Source of the DNA: Eubacteriales bacterium
GTDB taxonomy: Bacteria > Bacillota > Clostridia > Lachnospirales > JAVBJQ01
Length of the DNA: 64,000 bases
Assembly: GCA_031546905.1 (NCBI GenBank)
Contig: JAVBJQ010000041.1
Location: forward strand, 39,102-103,101
Direction: 5' to 3'
Part shown: piece by piece, positions 4,256-11,272 of the stretch
How positions within the stretch are numbered: the stretch's first letter is position 1
Layout: every line of letters starts with the position of its first letter
Translations under genes and position numbers: made by a program
Notes under the pieces: model-generated
The model's input: the letters and a program-made list of their open reading frames with translations, nothing else
Databases searched by the model: none
What the model was told of the DNA's origin: nothing

Positions 4256-4275
4256 GATAAATGAGTCACAAAAAA

Positions 4276-4316
4276 ATAGACCGTTAAAGCCTTTACGCTT
4301 TAACGGTCTATTTTTC
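4276..4316. terminator. bidirectional rho-independent terminator
   Basis: Perfect 15-bp stem ATAGACCGTTAAAGC / GCTTTAACGGTCTAT with a 6-nt loop. An A-run precedes it and a T-run follows. It sits between convergent genes. Confidence 0.8.
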
Positions 4317-4430: not shown

Positions 4431-4901
4431 TTATTTCTTTTTCTGCTGAGAATTTATAAAATCAAGTATTTTTAAAATACTTTGATTTTGTTGTTCTTCT
4501 CTCGTTATTATTGCAGTTCCATCCCCATCTTGCTCTCCATAATTACCAAAATAAGCATGATTTCCGCCTGCAATCTCAACTTTATCTTTCACATCCTCAA
4601 GCTTTGAGCGATTTAAAACACCATCTTCGCTACCATAGATTACAATCGTCGGCAGTGAAGCGGTATTAACAGAATAAGCACCTAGCAGAATCAAGCCTAA
4701 AACTTTATCAATATGTTTATTGGCATAGGAGCTTGCCATTGCACCACCTAATGAATGACCACCAATATACCATTTCTGTATTTCTGGGAACTTTTCAATT
4801 ACAGAATCCCCACGATTTACTCCAAAGACAGCGAGATTAAATGGCATTTTGACAAGCACACAAGTGATTCCGTTTTCAGCTTGAAGCAGTGGACTTTCAA
4901 A
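4431..4901 (-). pseudogene. 5'-truncated alpha/beta-hydrolase (C-terminal half only)
   Basis: Contains the nucleophile elbow GGHSLGGAMAS and the C-terminal IYGSEDGVLN..GGNHAYF. The frame is open only back to 4901 (..FESPLLQAENGITCVLVKMPFNLAVF). No SD or N-terminal region is present, and homology begins mid-protein 25 nt from the stop of the neighbouring giant ORF. Confidence 0.7.
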
Positions 4902-4926: not shown

Positions 4927-7900
4927 TTAGTCATTAATTTGTTTTCTCTTTCCTATCAATTTTCCTATTTCATTTAAATAGAACATTCCAGATATATGCG
5001 GCATACTGTAACTCTTCTGGGATGAAAAATTGTCAGTAATAATTCCTTTTTCTCCCAGTATTGTCCAAAAAATACTATACCCACTTTCATTAAGATATTC
5101 AAATAAACGATTTTTATCAATAAAGAATCCTATGTCTTCATTTAGAAGCTCCATGCTATCAAAACATATTATCAAATTATTTTGATCATATAAAATCGAA
5201 TCCTCCTTTCCATACTTCATTTTTAAACAATTAAATAGTTCGCCACATGGCTTGTACCACATACAGCTGCTTTCTTCTCCAAGTGTATCCCCATCTCGCT
5301 CGGTCAGATATTTAAAAGTAGGAATTAGGACTTTACCAAGGTTTGCATACTTTTTCTCACGAAAGTTATCAATATCAACCCATTCTTCACCACAATAATA
5401 TGGGTTTTCAAAGAAGCTGTATCCTTCAGACCAATAATACTCTTTATTATAAAGTTGATGGTAATCCCTTGGCTCTGGCATCCATCGCCCCATAAAATCA
5501 GCATCTGAAAGTTTTGTTATTAATTCATCAAGTTGTTCTTTTTTCACAATATAACTATTTACCTGAACCCACATATTTTTTAAAGGATTCTGATATTTTT
5601 TATCTCCAAGAGCCTTTTCTTCTGTCCACGAATACTGACCATTCAACAAGATAAAGTCTCTGCTATTATAATGAATGTTCATTAATTTCTCTATGTCTGG
5701 TAAATCATTAAATTTCTTTAACCATTCGCTATGTTCTTGCTTGGGTATCTTATAAAGTTGCTGGTGAACAGATTTTTTACAACTACTTCTTTCAGTTTTA
5801 GTTAAGGATATTGTAGGGTCAATATTCCTAACATTAGGTTCAAACGAGCCTTTACAATAGACCTTATTTTTAGTTCCACGAGCATCCACATATATCTGCA
5901 TTTTATAGTTATCACTTACCTGTGCTGCTAACTCAAAAAATGCAATCCATTGATATTTTTTGCCTATTCTTTCTTTGGTATTGTTAATCGTTCTTCCACT
6001 ACCTCTATGTCTATCATATTGCCCATGCTTTTCAGCATCATATCCTAGATCAAAAATCTTTTTAATTGCAATATTTTTCAAATCCATTGGGTCTAGTTGT
6101 TTCCAGTTGCTAAAATAACTCTGAAATGTATACCTGCCGAAATCACCATACCCCCCTGGTGAACCATCTCGAGAATATTCCACCTTCATTGAGCTTAAAA
6201 TAGAATTTTGCCCCCAATAATAATCTTTAAAACCTTTATCTTTATGGTCATATTTGTATTTTTTTACCTCATCATCAGATGGAATGTTGGGGAATATAGA
6301 TTTATAAGGAGGAGTCACTTTTGTCATATCAATATCCAATTCGCTTAATCTATACTCCGCATAATCAATGATATTCTTAGCATAATCACGGAGTAAAATA
6401 TTCGGATAAACAAATTCTCTATTAAAGATAGCCTTATATACATATTTTGCAAGCAAAGTTAGTTGGGAATTATTCGTTTCGGATACTGAACACCCAAATG
6501 CAACCGCATATAAACGCTCAGCAACATAAGGATCGTCAACATCTCTAAATTTTTGCAATACTTGTATTAGTATTTCAACATGACCTTCTAATAGAGCTAC
6601 CATTGCTTTAGTACTCTTGTCACGCAAATGCCGATTTGAAGAAATCAAAAAAATAGATATCATTAATGCTGCAAGTCTAATGGCATCATCAGAAATTTTA
6701 TAATTTACTTTAGTTGATAAACACCAGTCTAGTATTCTATTTATAGAGGAGCCTTGATTATCAAAAAAAATATCAAACATAGGAATAAATAAAGCATCTC
6801 TGTCAGGCATGGATATTCCTAAAATAAAATCAACTGTCATGTCTGCGTTAAAAACAAACTCACTTTTTGTAGAAACCAGAATCAATGTTTCAATAAATTG
6901 TTCAAAAATATTACTATTACCTTTCATAATATATTTGTTGATATAATTAATAGTTTTCTCGTTAACAGAGTTTGAACTTCTCCACTTTAGACTCTCAATA
7001 AATGCACATTTCACTGCCTCATGTTCAGGTGCAAATATATCAAATATTTCGTAATCGGTATCTTCTGTAGCACAGATAGCCAAGCATCCCAATATATCCC
7101 TGTAATGAATGAGTCGAGCATATTTTTTCGCAAACACTTTGATATCATTTTGCAACTCTTGAATGAGTATTTTAGAATATAAGTAATCCTCTAGCTTTTC
7201 ATATGTTATAAACAGATACTCTTCGTCTTCATAATTTATATTTTGTGTCAATACTCCTTCTGAAAGCAATTGTTCCAAAAGATCAGATTGGCAATTGTAT
7301 TTATTTTGTATTTTAAGAATCACTTCAAACATATCTTGTAAAGGTATAAAATTGCCTCCAGAACCTTTTTCATATTTATATTTTATAATTTCATTAATTA
7401 CTTCTCTAATAACTTTATAACGATGATTATATCCACAATTCTCTGCTATCCTTTGATTTATTGCCTCTAAATAATTATTAAAAACCTCAGACAATGAAAT
7501 TTCATCTATATTTATTGAATGATTTCTGTGTCCTTCACAAAACAGTCTTAAAAACAGTGGATTACCAAATTCGTGATTTGCAAATGGAACATCAGAAAAA
7601 ACAATACCATAAAACTCAAAATATTTTTTTACCGCTATATACTCAAGGGATTTAAAGCCACTATGAGTTATCATAACTAGTTCATTACGTAAATCCTCAC
7701 TACCGTTTAGCAAAATCTCTGTGTATTCAGAGCGAATTGTGATTACAAGTCCTATCCATTGGAATTTTTTGATTTTTTCAATAATACCTGCTAAATAATT
7801 TTTCCAAATTGACTTACCGTTACCTTCATTCAAAGCATCAATAAAAATTATGATTCTTGATTGTTGTTCCTGTGCGATAGAATTTATTTGTTCTAAGAAA

Positions 7901-9003
7901 GAATCCACCTCTAATTTTACACCGAGGAAACTTATCATTTCGTTTAATGGTGGTACATATCCTTTAAAATGTTGTCCCAAAAATAGCAAAGATTTATTAT
8001 TGTTAGCAATCCTTCTTTCAATAGCATCTGCAAGCAAATGAGATTTACCAATTCCACCTTCTCCGTCAATTAAAATGTAAGGTTGATTAACCGCTCTAAC
8101 CTCTGGTGAATCTAAATATTCAATATACTCCTCAACAGAACTATATGCTTCTCTGACTGAATATAGTTTATCTCTAAGGCCACTGCTATTTCTGTCTTGA
8201 TTTATCTTTGAATTTAAATCTATCATTTCTTTATTAAGAATAGAAAATATATCCTCTAGCAATAGCCGTATTGTGCTAATATCTAAATGAGTATCTTTAT
8301 CAGCTAGAAAGATAGTCATTACTTCTGTAACTTTGTCAATTAGGCATTTTAATCCGTCAATATGTAATGATTTTATTTTTACTATTGCGTTATCACTCTT
8401 ATCTTTGAAACGATGATAAAAATCATCATTTTTCGCCAATCCATCAAATACTTTGCTAGTTTCGGTGGAGATATTTAAGTCAGGAATGTATCTGTTTCCA
8501 AGATTCTTTATTTGCTCACGATTCTGTCTTGTAAACCATTCATCTGATAAACTTGTCCAAGTCTGAGTATGAATAGTTTTATGGATAGCTAAAAGCTCAT
8601 TTTTTATGGTATTTAAATCATTTTGAGCGACTCCGAACATTCCTTGTATGTTTTCAATCTCAAACTTATTTTGCATAAGCACATAGAATATTGCTCGATC
8701 ACTTGGCTGAATATTTATATATATAAAATCCTTCGTTTTATTTAAAATTGTTATCAAGAACTCATTAACCAGTTTGGTATCAAGAATAGAAATTTTAAGT
8801 TCATTATTTTCTAATGTGTAAATTAATTGACTCTGCATTTCAGTTAAGTAAGTTTTTTCATCAATAGTTTCATTAGATATTTTTAGTACATATTCAAAAA
8901 TTCGAATGATAAGTTTATGATTTGTAATGTAGCCGCAAAACTTTCCAGTTGTTACTATTGTTCCACGGCTCTTTTTTTCAAATTCATCGACCCATTTTAA
9001 CAA
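4927..9003 (-). CDS. giant STAND/NACHT-like P-loop NTPase (candidate NLR-type defence protein)
   Basis: 1358-aa ORF. Walker A is ILIDGEGGIGKSHLL (near 8041-8075), Walker B is RIIIFIDALNEG, followed by WIGLVITIRSEY and GNPLFLRLFCEG (NACHT/STAND-like signature). The ~300-aa N-terminal and ~650-aa C-terminal regions have no motif I recognise. The frame stays open to 9126, with a GGAGGG SD at 9117-9122, so the real start is probably upstream of TTG 9003. Confidence 0.8.
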   Translation of the reverse strand: MLKWVDEFEKKSRGTIVTTGKFCGYITNHKLIIRIFEYVLKISNETIDEKTYLTEMQSQLIYTLENNELKISILDTKLVNEFLITILNKTKDFIYINIQPSDRAIFYVLMQNKFEIENIQGMFGVAQNDLNTIKNELLAIHKTIHTQTWTSLSDEWFTRQNREQIKNLGNRYIPDLNISTETSKVFDGLAKNDDFYHRFKDKSDNAIVKIKSLHIDGLKCLIDKVTEVMTIFLADKDTHLDISTIRLLLEDIFSILNKEMIDLNSKINQDRNSSGLRDKLYSVREAYSSVEEYIEYLDSPEVRAVNQPYILIDGEGGIGKSHLLADAIERRIANNNKSLLFLGQHFKGYVPPLNEMISFLGVKLEVDSFLEQINSIAQEQQSRIIIFIDALNEGNGKSIWKNYLAGIIEKIKKFQWIGLVITIRSEYTEILLNGSEDLRNELVMITHSGFKSLEYIAVKKYFEFYGIVFSDVPFANHEFGNPLFLRLFCEGHRNHSINIDEISLSEVFNNYLEAINQRIAENCGYNHRYKVIREVINEIIKYKYEKGSGGNFIPLQDMFEVILKIQNKYNCQSDLLEQLLSEGVLTQNINYEDEEYLFITYEKLEDYLYSKILIQELQNDIKVFAKKYARLIHYRDILGCLAICATEDTDYEIFDIFAPEHEAVKCAFIESLKWRSSNSVNEKTINYINKYIMKGNSNIFEQFIETLILVSTKSEFVFNADMTVDFILGISMPDRDALFIPMFDIFFDNQGSSINRILDWCLSTKVNYKISDDAIRLAALMISIFLISSNRHLRDKSTKAMVALLEGHVEILIQVLQKFRDVDDPYVAERLYAVAFGCSVSETNNSQLTLLAKYVYKAIFNREFVYPNILLRDYAKNIIDYAEYRLSELDIDMTKVTPPYKSIFPNIPSDDEVKKYKYDHKDKGFKDYYWGQNSILSSMKVEYSRDGSPGGYGDFGRYTFQSYFSNWKQLDPMDLKNIAIKKIFDLGYDAEKHGQYDRHRGSGRTINNTKERIGKKYQWIAFFELAAQVSDNYKMQIYVDARGTKNKVYCKGSFEPNVRNIDPTISLTKTERSSCKKSVHQQLYKIPKQEHSEWLKKFNDLPDIEKLMNIHYNSRDFILLNGQYSWTEEKALGDKKYQNPLKNMWVQVNSYIVKKEQLDELITKLSDADFMGRWMPEPRDYHQLYNKEYYWSEGYSFFENPYYCGEEWVDIDNFREKKYANLGKVLIPTFKYLTERDGDTLGEESSCMWYKPCGELFNCLKMKYGKEDSILYDQNNLIICFDSMELLNEDIGFFIDKNRLFEYLNESGYSIFWTILGEKGIITDNFSSQKSYSMPHISGMFYLNEIGKLIGKRKQIND

Positions 9004-9371
9004 CTCGTCTTGAAATTTTTGAATCGCTTTCTTATCTTTCCAGATTGCTATACCATCAAATAGAAAACTGGAAAATACATTTGTAATTATTCCTACTAAA
9101 GTTTCTATAATGACATCCCTCCATATTCTTCATGTTAGAATTATACTATACAAACAGGACAAATGCATGAAAAAAATAAGAAGAAGGAAGAAAAAATGAT
9201 ATAATCAAGTAAAAAAAGTTGTGTCAAAGAATGGAAGAAATATTTATATTTTTGGAAAGTATAGTAGACGACTGGCAAGAAATAGAGATATTCCGACAAA
9301 ATAATGACGAACTTCTGAAACGGTATGTACCACTAGAAACGGGATACCGTCACATGATATACTCGACGCAC

Positions 9372-9688
9372 TTAAAAACACTCAATAAGAACATCGTCTA
9401 AAGAAGAGAATTGAGGAAGGGATTTTACGCAATTGACGCTTAAGCTAACTCCAATATTTTTCTATAGGATTTAACTCTGGAGAGATGGTGGCAAAAACAT
9501 TAAGAGAGTCTAAGCTTTTTAGTAAGCAAAGTAAGCCTACTTTTTCTATGAAAAGAGGCATTATCCATCATGATGACAGATTGTTTAGGAAGGACTGGTA
9601 AAAGTTTTGTTTCAAACCAAGTTTCAAAAAGTGTGCTATTCATTGTACCATTATACTGTAGAGGAGAAACGATTTCTTGCCCGAATTG
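9372..9688 (-). mobile_element. IS630/Tc1-mariner family transposase relic (C-terminal DDE_3 portion, frameshifted, 5'-truncated)
   Basis: Reverse translation gives GQEIVSPLQYNGTMNSTLFETWFETKLLPVLPKQSVIMMDNASFHRK.., then (stop/frameshift) ..SPELNPIEKYWS*LKRQLRK, then (frameshift) SLDDVLIECF*. This is the conserved IS630 C-terminus broken by stops. No N-terminal half is present. Confidence 0.75.
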
Positions 9689-9704
9689 TGAGAACTATAT
9701 AGAT

Positions 9705-10061
9705 ATGACCGATTCAAATAGTATTATCGCTTTTGTAAATCGTATTGAAAAATACAAAGCAAACCAATACAAAATATATGAACTTGATGGCAATACGGTT
9801 AAAATGTTCCAAGATGGTTTTACTAGGTATATTAGAATTTTTAGTGCGTCTGCTATAGGTATAATGGTTTCTATTGGTTGTGCTATATTACTAAAAAACA
9901 CAGTACTATTTAAAATTTTACCTTTCCCATTAACATTGATCTCTCTACTTTTTGTAATTAGCAGTATGGCAATTGCGTGCCAAACACTGAGTGTATCTGT
10001 ATCGTTGGCTAAAGCAGGAAAAATTGAAGAAAAAGGTAATATTTTAAATAAATGTAGGTAA
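9705..10061 (+). CDS. hypothetical small membrane protein (two predicted TM helices)
   Basis: The track ORF 9570..10061 begins inside the IS630 relic. An internal ATG at 9705 gives 118 aa with two hydrophobic stretches (AIGIMVSIGCAILL; FPLTLISLLFVISSMAIA). No convincing SD. Confidence 0.3.
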   Translation: MTDSNSIIAFVNRIEKYKANQYKIYELDGNTVKMFQDGFTRYIRIFSASAIGIMVSIGCAILLKNTVLFKILPFPLTLISLLFVISSMAIACQTLSVSVSLAKAGKIEEKGNILNKCR

Positions 10062-10324: not shown

Positions 10325-11272
10325 ATGAAAACAAATCCATATTTAGATTTAAATAGAATTGAGTTTCTTGTTACGCTCCAATGTACTGGAAAATGTAAAC
10401 ATTGTTCAGTTGGAACAAGATTGAATGAAAAAAATAGCAAGTGCGTTGATGTAGAGAAAGCAATTGATATGATTGAGAAACTTTCCACACGGTTTTCAAT
10501 TGAATCTCTAATGACATTTGGAGGAGAACCTTTACTTTATACTGAAACAGCCTGCGCTATTCACAGAGCTGCTACACAATGCAAGATTCATAAGCGACAA
10601 CTGATAACGAATGGCTATTTTTCAAAAAATTCTCAAATAATTCAAGATACAGCTAGAAAAATTTATCAAGCTGGAATTAACGATATTTTATTGTCAATTG
10701 ATGCGTTTCATCAAGAAACTATACCTATAGAACCCGTACGTACGTTTGCAGAAGAACTTATTAAATGCAATGTTCCTAGTGTTTGTTTACACCCTGCATG
10801 GGTAATCAATTCTGAACATGTGAACATTTACAATTATACAACACATACTATTTTATCTTCGCTTTCAGAATTAGGGATTGAGACAACGAATGGAAATAAT
10901 ATTTTTCCATCAGGTAATGCTGCTAAGTATCTTTCGGATTTTTATAAATTACCTGAAAATCTTGATTTGACTTTTAAGTGTGGAGAAGCACCATACACTG
11001 ACCGACTTGACAATATCCATTCTCTTTCAGTAGAGCCTAATGGTGATGTATCAGTCTGTGCATTTGTAATAGGTAACATCTATGAAAATGATATTAATTA
11101 TATCGTTGATAGCTATAACCCATTTTCTAACGACATGATGAAAGCATTGATAGATGGTGGTGTTAATGCACTTCTGTGTTATGCTGAAGAACATGGTAAG
11201 CAAGTAGATGTGAGTGATTGTTATTCGGTATGCTCAGTATGTAGAAAAATAGTTAGTAGCTTCACGGCTTGA
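10325..11272 (+). CDS. radical SAM protein with SPASM/twitch-like C-terminal Cys cluster
   Basis: CTGKCKHC (CxxxCxxC) at aa 20-27, with GGEPLL, ITNGYF and LLSIDAFH motifs. The C-terminus has C..EPNGDVSVC (G-x4-C) and DCYSVCSVC cysteine motifs. Confidence 0.85.
   Translation: MKTNPYLDLNRIEFLVTLQCTGKCKHCSVGTRLNEKNSKCVDVEKAIDMIEKLSTRFSIESLMTFGGEPLLYTETACAIHRAATQCKIHKRQLITNGYFSKNSQIIQDTARKIYQAGINDILLSIDAFHQETIPIEPVRTFAEELIKCNVPSVCLHPAWVINSEHVNIYNYTTHTILSSLSELGIETTNGNNIFPSGNAAKYLSDFYKLPENLDLTFKCGEAPYTDRLDNIHSLSVEPNGDVSVCAFVIGNIYENDINYIVDSYNPFSNDMMKALIDGGVNALLCYAEEHGKQVDVSDCYSVCSVCRKIVSSFTA

Follow-up and report, generated by a model that had tools for sequence, protein, structure and literature searches.

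The locus and its Avs2 gene

In the 64-kb window (the whole stretch of DNA that was analysed), a giant open reading frame of 4.1-4.2 kb lies on the minus strand, with its stop codon at 4927-4929 and the frame open to 9129, bounded on the 5' side by an in-frame TGA at 9130-9132. Its first canonical start codon is a TTG (9001..9003, minus strand), which is the start in the public annotation and gives 1358 aa, the same as the NCBI-derived protein, left unnamed in the public record. Full-length homologues begin 35 residues further upstream, and the native protein should therefore comprise ~1393 aa; the ancestral coding region of the Avs2 gene (4927..9108, minus strand) accordingly holds 1393 codons plus the stop. 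An earlier note made from the sequence alone had claimed such a giant frame of at least 1358 aa, a length that holds from the TTG and falls short of the one given by the homologues. It had also described an insertion that truncated a hydrolase gene, next to an IS630 relic, and both were recovered. At its downstream junction, the insertion has cut an Abhydrolase_5 (alpha/beta hydrolase) gene (4431..4901, minus strand) on the 5' side; profile positions 1-30 are missing, and what is left of the gene extends to ~4901, ~25 bp from the Avs2 stop. Upstream of the Avs2 gene, an IS630-family (DDE_3) transposase relic (9385..9694, minus strand; PF13358, E=4.4e-16, profile positions 53-135 of 146) retains only the C-terminal third, with a frameshift and stop codons.

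The PADLOC Avs2 model PDLC02162 matched the protein with E=0 and 1179.8 bits (protein 20-1396 against profile 2-1372 of 1379), five more Avs2 models in PADLOC gave E values from 1e-96 to 1e-295, and the NCBIfam Avs2 equivalog NF041813 scored 988.4 bits, just under its cut-off of 1000 bits. By using phmmer against the PDB, the cryo-EM chain of E. coli Avs2 (EcAvs2), 9o4e_A, was retrieved with E=1.2e-187 over aa 164-954 and 1011-1389, a match that takes in the helical extension and NTPase as well as the TPR-like region and the C-terminal terminase sensor. This chain belongs to a 2.3 Å structure of EcAvs2 with its terminase ligand (Evans et al. 2026, PMC13601566; PDB 9o4e). No Pfam model exceeded its cut-off on the protein, and only sub-threshold matches to KAP_NTPase and AAA_16 appeared, which explains why no domain beyond the P-loop NTPase had been recognised in the earlier note. 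Judged from these sequence matches, the assignment of the protein to the Avs2 (AVAST type 2) STAND NTPases, a family reportedly defined by Gao et al. in 2020/2022, is essentially settled.

The state of this copy is a separate matter. All full-length homologues open with M-[DEN]-T-[LI], whereas the window carries I-E-T-L, with ATA (Ile) instead of ATG at the ancestral start site (9106..9108, minus strand), and neither ATG, GTG nor TTG occurs between 9129 and 9003. Because the ancestral ATG is an ATA, expression of the gene in this genome is doubtful. It is conceivable, although on the unlikely side, that this Avs2 allele is decaying or has been inactivated, in which case loss of the ATG abolishes translation or leaves a product without helix 1, a scenario that concerns activity and not identity. 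The 1358-aa product from the TTG lacks the first 35 residues and hence helix 1, N-terminal residues are essential in related MEPIS/Bab helices (Bab D2A, G11K, Y14A, D15A; Avast2 N-terminal mutants), and the truncated hydrolase and the IS630 relic are further decayed elements in the locus. On the other hand, the 1393 codons are fully open and all motifs are intact, so any inactivation would have been very recent, and a Shine-Dalgarno GGAGG (9118..9122, minus strand) is preserved at good spacing, 9 nt 5' of the ATA and 6 nt 5' of an ATT; a Propionispora homologue has GGAG at the equivalent place upstream of its ATG. The near-cognate codons ATT and ATA allow low-level initiation in bacteria, and infC starts with ATT. 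Moreover, selection could tolerate or even favour weak expression of a toxic sensor, and a sequencing error is possible, as the sequence is carried by one contig only. In this genome, the gene may thus yield either a low-level product from the non-canonical ATA or ATT behind the intact GGAGG, or, by initiation at the TTG (9003), a shortened product that lacks helix 1 and would probably be inactive.

The conserved core and the probable terminase sensor

All modules are encoded on the minus strand, and residues are counted from the ATA at 9108. The effector module is followed by a helical extension (aa ~187-340, 8089..8550; limits approximate) that joins it to the NTPase and opens with a conserved DEWF...NLGxRYxPxLN anchor aligning to EcAvs2 from residue ~142 onward, the helical extension of EcAvs2 having been described previously (PMC13601566). 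The STAND NTPase module (aa ~341-700, 7009..8088; approximate) contains Walker A GEGGIGKSHLL (aa 349-359, 8032-8064) and Walker B IIIFIDALNEG (aa 419-429, 7822-7854), and the motifs GxGGIGKSHLLAD and hhhFIDAxNEG are shared with EcAvs2. A helical TPR-like sensor part (aa ~701-1010, 6079..7008; approximate) was recognized by alignment to EcAvs2, and a C-terminal sensor domain (aa 1011-1393, 4930..6078), homologous to the terminase-binding sensor of EcAvs2, completes the protein. Every motif quoted earlier was found in the translation, including WIGLVITIRSEY (aa 451-462), GNPLFLRLFCEG (aa 515-526), DPYVAERLYAVAFGC (aa 859-873), YGDFGRYTFQSYF (aa 987-999) and ERIGKKYQWIAFFE (aa 1046-1059), and the previously proposed single-gene, STAND-type antiphage layout of effector, NTPase and sensor agrees with the matches to the Avs2 model and 9o4e_A. 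The C-terminal ~650 residues had been described as free of recognisable TPR motifs; no Pfam TPR model fires on the protein, whereas the homologous EcAvs2 region is TPR-like.

Homology to EcAvs2 runs from aa ~164 to the C-terminal end, with ~34% identity over ~85% of the length; the helical extension, STAND NTPase, TPR-like region and C-terminal sensor are shared, and both are single-gene systems. The C-terminal sensor alone matched residues 1103-1479 of 9o4e_A with E=3.6e-62. Among the EcAvs2 residues that contact terminase or the bridging ATP, six of the eight that could be mapped are identical (R1130, E1362, E1444) or conservatively replaced (T1128 by S, E1364 by D, W1266 by Y), while R1132 (I here) and E1462 (H here) are not kept. 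EcAvs2 further differs in having ~90 residues within 966-1101, including the contact D981, that lack an aligned counterpart in the TPR region here, and the start codon mutation and the low-GC, Clostridia-like host also set the present gene apart. On the strength of this homology, the C-terminal ~650 residues are taken to be the known Avs2 terminase-sensing module, terminase sensing being extrapolated from proteins ~34% identical, and the sensor can hardly be called one of unknown type, as had been claimed.

By analogy with the Avs2 family, the C-terminal pocket and the helical extension would bind the ATPase domain of the phage large terminase during infection, which would license ATP-dependent tetramerisation of the NTPase; the tetramer would then gather four N-terminal modules, switch on their toxic activity and kill or arrest the infected cell (abortive infection). 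An unlikely alternative is that the physiological trigger is a phage protein other than the large terminase, as for KpAvs2 with Ksap1 and Ksap2. Both KpAvs2 and EcAvs2 are described as answering to non-terminase activators, and the two changed contacts and the missing ~90-aa TPR segment with D981 would fit another ligand, but the strong conservation of the C-terminal sensor and of most mapped contacts argues for terminase.

The N-terminal effector module

The N-terminal effector module (aa 1-186, 8551..9108, minus strand) is predicted to be all-helical, and residues 1-140 form a six-helix bundle in an AF2 model (pLDDT 85, pTM 0.80). Helix 1 (aa 4-22, LVGIITNVFSSFLFDGIAI; 9043..9099, minus strand) is the most hydrophobic 19-mer of the protein (Kyte-Doolittle 1.79) and resembles a MEPIS-type N-terminal helix. 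The module alone has no Pfam or PADLOC match, in keeping with the earlier view of an effector of unknown type. A Foldseek search of the model against the PDB gave no neighbour, Bab 9H9V, HeLo and MLKL being missed as well (best hit E~1, TM<=0.34), no significant match was obtained in either the PDB or BFVD, and an effector-only profile run against PDB sequences did not match EcAvs2. Judging by sequence, novelty would be confined only to this ~186-aa effector, the remainder consisting of known Avs2 parts. Avs2 effectors of a similar kind, non-enzymatic and uncharacterised, have already been considered in published work.

Several features are weakly suggestive of a relationship to the "MEPIS"/Bell-like effector of EcAvs2, which is likewise small and non-enzymatic-looking with a hydrophobic first helix, although no significant sequence similarity links the 186 aa to it. 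By using hhalign, the module and MEPIS-type effectors were found to be collinear from both starts (score 26.8, P=0.002, higher than all 300 shuffled controls), the score decreasing to 17.7 (P=0.04) with a broader effector family profile, and the module start M-E/D-T-L/I-S-x-I-I...Y-D resembles the MEPIS motif. The effector looks non-enzymatic, and its helix 1 resembles the 'MEPIS' helix of EcAvs2 and of the Bab/Bell/HeLo membrane-targeting domains. Bab/Babybell, Bell, Hell/HeLo, the MLKL four-helix bundle and plant CC domains share a hydrophobic N-terminal helix 1 followed by sheath helices, as well as the N-terminal position on oligomerising immune sensors. They show no significant sequence or Foldseek similarity to the present module and are smaller, with ~80-100 aa versus six predicted helices in 140 aa. 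Bab and its relatives are membrane-targeting helical cell-death modules; mutations in the MEPIS region weaken EcAvs2 defence, and Bab leads to membrane alterations (Ibarlosa et al., bioRxiv 10.1101/2024.11.07.622273). The best guess for effector action, the weakest step of the proposed mechanism, is that oligomerisation would set helix 1 free and membrane damage would ensue. Aromatic residues and glycine predominate at the most conserved positions (G49, F57, F117, Y142), and a conserved polar loop, FEKxxDGTIxT, could have a ligand-binding or catalytic role.

The effector family comprises 271 representatives, always N-terminal, and occurs in fusions with nSTAND5+TPR, nSTAND3/NACHT and TPR-GreAB-C-PIN sensors as well; the same spread, to other STANDs and a PIN-containing system, has been reported for the EcAvs2 effector (PMC13601566). 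In close relatives of the protein, with 49-56% identity over the C-terminal 86%, the N-terminus is of the SIR2_2, metallophosphatase or PNP-like type, and in more distant ones it is Mrr-like, MEPIS-type or multi-TM, which points to the N-terminal effector swapping typical of Avs proteins. The nearest sisters are SIR2-Avs2 and metallophosphatase-Avs2 of Clostridia (among them P0023 from Haloimpatiens, P0034 from Clostridium paraputrificum, P0060 from Clostridioides, P0047 and P0068), in which the shared identity covers the helical extension, NTPase and sensor and the N-terminus is enzymatic (PF13289 SIR2_2 or PF00149) rather than helical. That sister Avs2 proteins have a SIR2, metallophosphatase, PNP-like or Mrr effector in exactly the same slot makes it improbable that the module is no toxin but an adaptor (in the EAD/Death-like sense of Kaur et al.) recruiting a separate effector with the same module by homotypic contacts. 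Such a role would suit a small, all-helical, apparently non-catalytic module that is strictly terminal and common to many sensor architectures, including TPR-GreAB-C-PIN proteins, which are often EAD carriers. In addition, one family member (P0150, 629 aa) has no P-loop and a C-terminal end with sub-threshold similarity to nucleoside 2-deoxyribosyltransferases (24.8 versus a cut-off of 28.8 bits), and could be an adaptor-effector fusion. However, a search of all frames of the window and of +/-8 kb around three homologues revealed no second copy of the module, and 186 aa is ~2x the typical EAD size.

Neighbourhoods of the gene and its homologues

Five homologues of the same architecture were found in five different, non-syntenic neighbourhoods rich in mobile elements or defence genes, in line with the defence-type surroundings suggested earlier: these contain IS21; a serine-recombinase/Mob/primase element beside an MmeI-type R-M enzyme; TnsD, Uma2 and SymE; an IS3 transposase; and FRG, an SLFN-like helicase and Mrr. 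No partner gene is conserved across the five, and the absence of a partner claimed for the window was thereby borne out. It is considered likely, with good confidence, that the gene encodes a single-protein antiviral Avs2 STAND NTPase with the proposed terminase-triggered action, horizontally acquired into a housekeeping region.

A multi-gene system involving the nearby radical-SAM/SPASM gene (10325-11272) appears very unlikely. Its model would be KpAvs2 (Bechon et al. 2024, PMC11564622), which has the Avs2 core and sensor in common with the present protein, possesses an Mrr-type nuclease effector, requires Avap2 and is triggered by Ksap proteins; ~5% of Avs2 genes are linked to Avap2 (DUF6375), and most of this ~5% to Avap1 (radical SAM) too. 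The radical-SAM gene lies 1.2 kb upstream of the Avs2 gene and weakly resembles pVip models in its N-terminal core, but this match (residues 12-132 against profile positions 2-107 of 257) does not extend beyond the generic radical-SAM core, the gene is oriented divergently from the Avs2 gene with the IS630 relic in between, no DUF6375 match was found in the neighbouring ORF scanned, and none of the five homologue neighbourhoods contains a radical-SAM gene. Unlike KpAvs2, the present gene has no conserved accessory gene and a non-nuclease effector.

The original proposal of an undescribed single-gene NLR-type sensor, with effector and sensor both of unknown type, can be practically dismissed, since the unnamed public record and the Pfam results are outweighed by strong Avs2 model and EcAvs2 matches over the NTPase and both sensor regions, where it is refuted. 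The GC content of the Avs2 gene is slightly below that of its flanks.

Assignment to the Avs2 family

The minus-strand ORF, with its stop codon at 4927-4929 and a frame open to 9129, carries each of the peptide motifs quoted in an earlier note on this DNA at the expected position. The Walker A motif GEGGIGKSHLL (8032-8064, minus strand; aa 349-359) aligns to GKAGIGKSHLL of E. coli Avs2 (EcAvs2), and the Walker B motif IIIFIDALNEG (7822-7854, minus strand; aa 419-429) aligns to VLVFIDAINEG of the same protein. HMM searches of the kind proposed in that note remained silent in Pfam, where the whole protein and its N- and C-terminal pieces gave no match above threshold and only sub-threshold P-loop matches, so that the impression of a protein with no recognisable domain was a fair one from sequence alone. 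NACHT (PF05729) was not matched at E<=1, and assignment of the protein to the bNACHT group failed.

On the other hand, PADLOC and NCBIfam models identified the protein as Avs2. The PADLOC Avs2 model PDLC02162 was matched at E=0 (1179.8 bits), and five further Avs2 models of that collection match the central ~820 residues. The NCBIfam model NF041813 ("AVAST type 2 anti-phage system protein Avs2") reached 988.4 bits (E=6.5e-297) over profile positions 1-834 of 1317 and missed its strict equivalog threshold of 1000 bits by 1%. This narrow shortfall plausibly explains the missing name in the public record. Together with the partial profile coverage, it implies that automatic annotation would leave this Clostridia clade unnamed, although its members are clearly Avs2 proteins; the "hypothetical protein" of the annotation ought to carry the name Avs2.

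The sole match among PDB sequences was chain A of 9o4e, the EcAvs2 subunit of the 2.3 A EcAvs2-terminase cryo-EM complex (E=1.2e-187). The match consists of two collinear blocks, in which aa 164-954 correspond to residues 142-965 and aa 1011-1389 to residues 1102-1479 of EcAvs2; within the helical extension, the DEWF...NLGxRYxPxLN anchor and the helices that follow it align to EcAvs2 from residue ~142 onwards. In EcAvs2 the aligned blocks comprise the helical extension, the NTPase, the TPR-like domain, and the beta-rich "C-terminal sensor", which jointly form the terminase pocket (PMC13601566). The NTPase falls in the Avs2 STAND clade, and the protein is a bona fide member of Avs2, a known and structurally characterised family, with an NTPase and a sensor that are ordinary for it. 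The proposal of an undescribed NLR-type system is therefore refuted by the PADLOC, NCBIfam, and EcAvs2 matches. Similarly, the view that both flanking modules are of unknown type fails for the sensor, since the ~650 C-terminal residues correspond to the known Avs2 sensor, and stands for the effector.

The C-terminal 399 aa alone match EcAvs2 residues 1103-1479 at E=3.6e-62. By using this alignment, the EcAvs2 positions in contact with the terminase or with the bridging ATP were transferred from the structure to the window protein. Six of them are identical or conservatively replaced (T1128 by S, R1130 by R, W1266 by Y, E1362 by E, E1364 by D, and E1444 by E), and two are changed (R1132 to I and E1462 to H). 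EcAvs2 D981 is unaligned, as it falls in a ~90-residue stretch (966-1101) that lacks a counterpart here. This pattern is compatible with terminase sensing without proving it; other phage proteins can also trigger Avs2 proteins (PMC11564622).

A search of a 5.8-billion-protein collection found 483 relatives. Approximately thirty of them, 1370-1411 aa long, align over their whole length at 35-57% identity and come mostly from Clostridia and other Firmicutes (such as Propionispora, Petroclostridium, Hydrogenoanaerobacterium, and Tissierellaceae). Many more match at 49-56% identity over the C-terminal 86% only, and their N-termini are SIR2_2 (PF13289), metallophosphatase (PF00149), or PNP-like domains; in more distant relatives, Mrr-like PD-(D/E)xK, MEPIS-type, and multi-TM N-termini were found. 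The relatives display the classic Avs pattern, in which effectors are swapped while the NTPase-sensor chassis is conserved. No close relatives turned up in a scan of viral contigs. One Avs2 relative (P0099, 1382 aa) has several predicted transmembrane helices in the N-terminal slot, which shows that membrane-acting effectors do occur on the Avs2 chassis.

A portable N-terminal module

The effector module (aa 1-186; 8551-9108, minus strand) is predicted to fold as a six-helix bundle. When searched alone, it matches nothing in Pfam and no PADLOC model at E<=0.1; for the latter reason, the end-to-end PADLOC alignment of the whole protein was rejected as proof that the module has already been catalogued. 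The structure search suggested earlier for the N-terminus was carried out in Foldseek with a 140-aa model of the module, and it returned no significant neighbour in the PDB or the viral BFVD.

A profile of the module alone (A2) retrieved 271 representatives at E<=1e-3 among 1.84 billion cluster representatives, and every carrier has the module at its N-terminus. The carriers include two classes. The first comprises Avs2-sized proteins, and the second comprises proteins of ~1170-1250 aa with nSTAND5+TPR, nSTAND3/NACHT, or PIN-TPR-GreABC (Agp/TGP-like) architectures. The module is thus a portable effector (or adaptor) common to unrelated immune sensors. Individual fusions to TPR-GreAB-C-PIN (Agp/TGP-like), nSTAND5+TPR, and nSTAND3/NACHT were observed in five homologous proteins (P0179, P0182, P0177, P0163, and P0166).

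Another homologous protein, P0150 (629 aa), carries the module at its N-terminus and has no Walker A motif, and a nucleoside 2-deoxyribosyltransferase-like match at its C-terminus stays below threshold (24.8 bits; cut-off 28.8). Its architecture does not fit the simple picture of the module as the only effector.

The module might alternatively be an adaptor resembling an effector-associated domain (EAD) and not itself a toxin. Several copies of one EAD per locus are typical, whereas hmmsearch in all six frames of the window and of loci L001-L005 (around three homologues) found no copy of the module other than that on Avs2 itself. The adaptor reading is therefore disfavoured.

Possible resemblance to membrane-targeting effectors

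The "MEPIS" motif in the first ~15 residues of EcAvs2 is common to the Bab/Babybell, Bell, and Hell/HeLo membrane-targeting domains; mutations of this region impair Avs2 defence, and Bab, upon infection, relocalises and alters membranes (Ibarlosa et al., bioRxiv 10.1101/2024.11.07.622273). In the window clade, N-terminal starts such as METLVGIITNVFSSFLYD and METISNIVINILSSFLYD resemble MEPISITIITYVSLKFVDQF, and the clade consensus M-E/D-T-L/I-S-x-I-I-x-N-I-F-S-S-x-L-Y-D resembles MEPIS...II.YVS..F.D, both likenesses being judged by eye and hhalign register only. The first helix of the module (helix 1, aa 4-22) has the highest Kyte-Doolittle value in the protein (1.79). An hhalign comparison of the narrow A2 profile with 18 MEPIS-type effectors gave a score of 26.8 (P=0.002), collinear from residue 1 of both, which exceeded all 300 shuffled controls (150 column and 150 block shuffles; maximum 25.4). 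With a broad 106-sequence family profile the score was 17.7 (P=0.04) and the register was unchanged.

Several other comparisons were negative. The effector-only HMM found no match to EcAvs2 in hmmsearch, and hhalign of the module against Mrr-type N-termini gave no match. Structural likeness to Bab (9H9V), HeLo, or the MLKL four-helix bundle was sought and not found. A profile that included the DEWF...NLGxRY anchor (A1) had matched EcAvs2 residues 83-199; this match was rejected as effector homology, as it disappeared once the anchor was removed to give A2. In its spread over Avs2, nSTAND5+TPR, nSTAND3/NACHT, and PIN-TPR-GreABC sensors, the module is similar to the EcAvs2 effector, for which the same spread across diverse STANDs and a PIN-containing system has been described (PMC13601566).

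Homology of the module to the MEPIS/Bell family is suggestive but unproven, and a functional analogy, which we infer, is reasonable. Under such an analogy, the hydrophobic helix 1 would be released upon tetramerisation of the NTPase. A tentative proposal, which we regard as less likely than not, is that the module, with its six-helix bundle, its strongly hydrophobic first helix, and its lack of a Foldseek neighbour in the PDB, may represent a separate and so far unnamed family of effectors that cause cell death by non-enzymatic means, recruited by at least four sensor architectures (counted as Avs2, nSTAND3/NACHT, nSTAND5-TPR, and TPR-GreAB-C-PIN) and killing via oligomerisation-triggered membrane insertion. 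If true, this would be a bacterial equivalent of the HeLo/Bell/CC-resistosome mechanism that either arose independently or has diverged too far to be recognised.

The gene itself adds little biologically, as the Avs2 family had already been established together with its trigger and its mode of activation. Its modest value lies in the effector, which belongs to a family of 271 clusters whose small helical modules occupy the N-termini of several unrelated immune sensors. The 2026 structure paper (PMC13601566) explicitly poses the function of the non-enzymatic EcAvs2 effector as an open question. The module offers a second effector family, possibly related to that of EcAvs2, and a second module, whether related or convergent, may provide a comparative handle on how the EcAvs2 effector kills.

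Start codon and genomic context

All full-length homologues start with M-[D/E/N]-T-[L/I]-x-S-I, and the same register in the window reads I-E-T-L-V-G-I, where ATA at 9108-9106 (minus strand) replaces the ATG of the homologues. Upstream of this codon lie an ATT and an intact GGAGG at 9122-9118 (minus strand), and the remainder of the reading frame is intact. Both ATT and ATA are able to initiate translation with low efficiency. The first canonical start, used by the public annotation, is a TTG at 9003, and the product from this codon would lack the first 35 residues, including the entire hydrophobic helix 1. The gene could be weakly translated (throttled) from a near-cognate codon, or be a very recently disabled allele, or reflect a base-call error, and this start-codon lesion makes its activity in the source strain uncertain. 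With ATG changed to ATA at codon one, this copy illustrates on a small scale how genes for toxic effectors may be silenced or throttled in nature.

The gene has housekeeping genes on both sides: ispE together with genes for a GntR regulator and a TIM-barrel isomerase at one end, and a radical-SAM/SPASM gene with guaA and guaB at the other. Its GC content is slightly lower than that of the flanks. Downstream of the gene, an alpha/beta hydrolase (Abhydrolase_5) gene on the minus strand (4431-4901) has lost its 5' end; its homology runs in frame beyond the called GTG start to a stop codon, and the remnant ends at ~4901, ~25 bp from the Avs2 stop. No trace of the lost 5' half came up between 9130 and 10330. 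Upstream of the gene, a frameshifted C-terminal third of an IS630/DDE_3 transposase remains at 9385-9694 (minus strand). Scans for repeats, promoters, and terminators around the gene gave nothing beyond chance, and no flanking direct repeats mark the insertion. When an empty site was sought with a flanking protein in GTDB genomes, only one locus, at 40% identity, was obtained.

The neighbourhood survey envisaged earlier covered five homologues of the same architecture, which lie in five unrelated neighbourhoods, each rich in mobile-element or defence genes: IS21; a serine-recombinase/Mob/primase element adjoining an MmeI-type enzyme; TnsD, Uma2, and SymE; an IS3 transposase; and FRG, an SLFN-like helicase, and Mrr. 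No neighbour recurs among them, and none contains a radical-SAM or DUF6375 gene. These loci and the two remnants bear out the context first described for the gene, namely a truncated hydrolase, an IS630 relic, and no partner.

In some Avs2 systems a radical-SAM protein (Avap1) serves as an accessory (PMC11564622); in systems of the KpAvs2 type, its gene usually shares an operon with a DUF6375 (Avap2) gene adjacent to Avs2. The radical-SAM/SPASM protein of the window (315 aa; 10325-11272, plus strand) is encoded 1.2 kb upstream of Avs2, divergently and beyond the IS630 relic, and the scanned ORF next to Avs2 gave no DUF6375 (Avap2) match, so that the accessory arrangement of the relative KpAvs2 was not found. 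The gene was rejected as an Avap1 equivalent on account of its orientation, its position, and its failure to recur; the lack of any radical-SAM or DUF6375 gene in the five homologue neighbourhoods likewise makes an Avap1-type role unlikely. The protein shows weak similarity to prokaryotic viperin models in its N-terminal core only (E=5e-10; profile positions 2-107 of 257).

Two minor features were also observed. A 163-aa ORF at 9570-10061 (plus strand), which at its 5' end overlaps the oppositely oriented IS630 relic, has a CPNC zinc-ribbon-like motif, two predicted hydrophobic helices, and a weak PADLOC PycTM match (E=0.018); it could encode a genuine small membrane protein or be spurious. 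The other feature is a perfect inverted repeat of 19 bp around a 6-nt loop (4272-4315), located between the isomerase gene and the hydrolase gene, which converge on it. Bordered by A and T runs, it looks like a bidirectional terminator.
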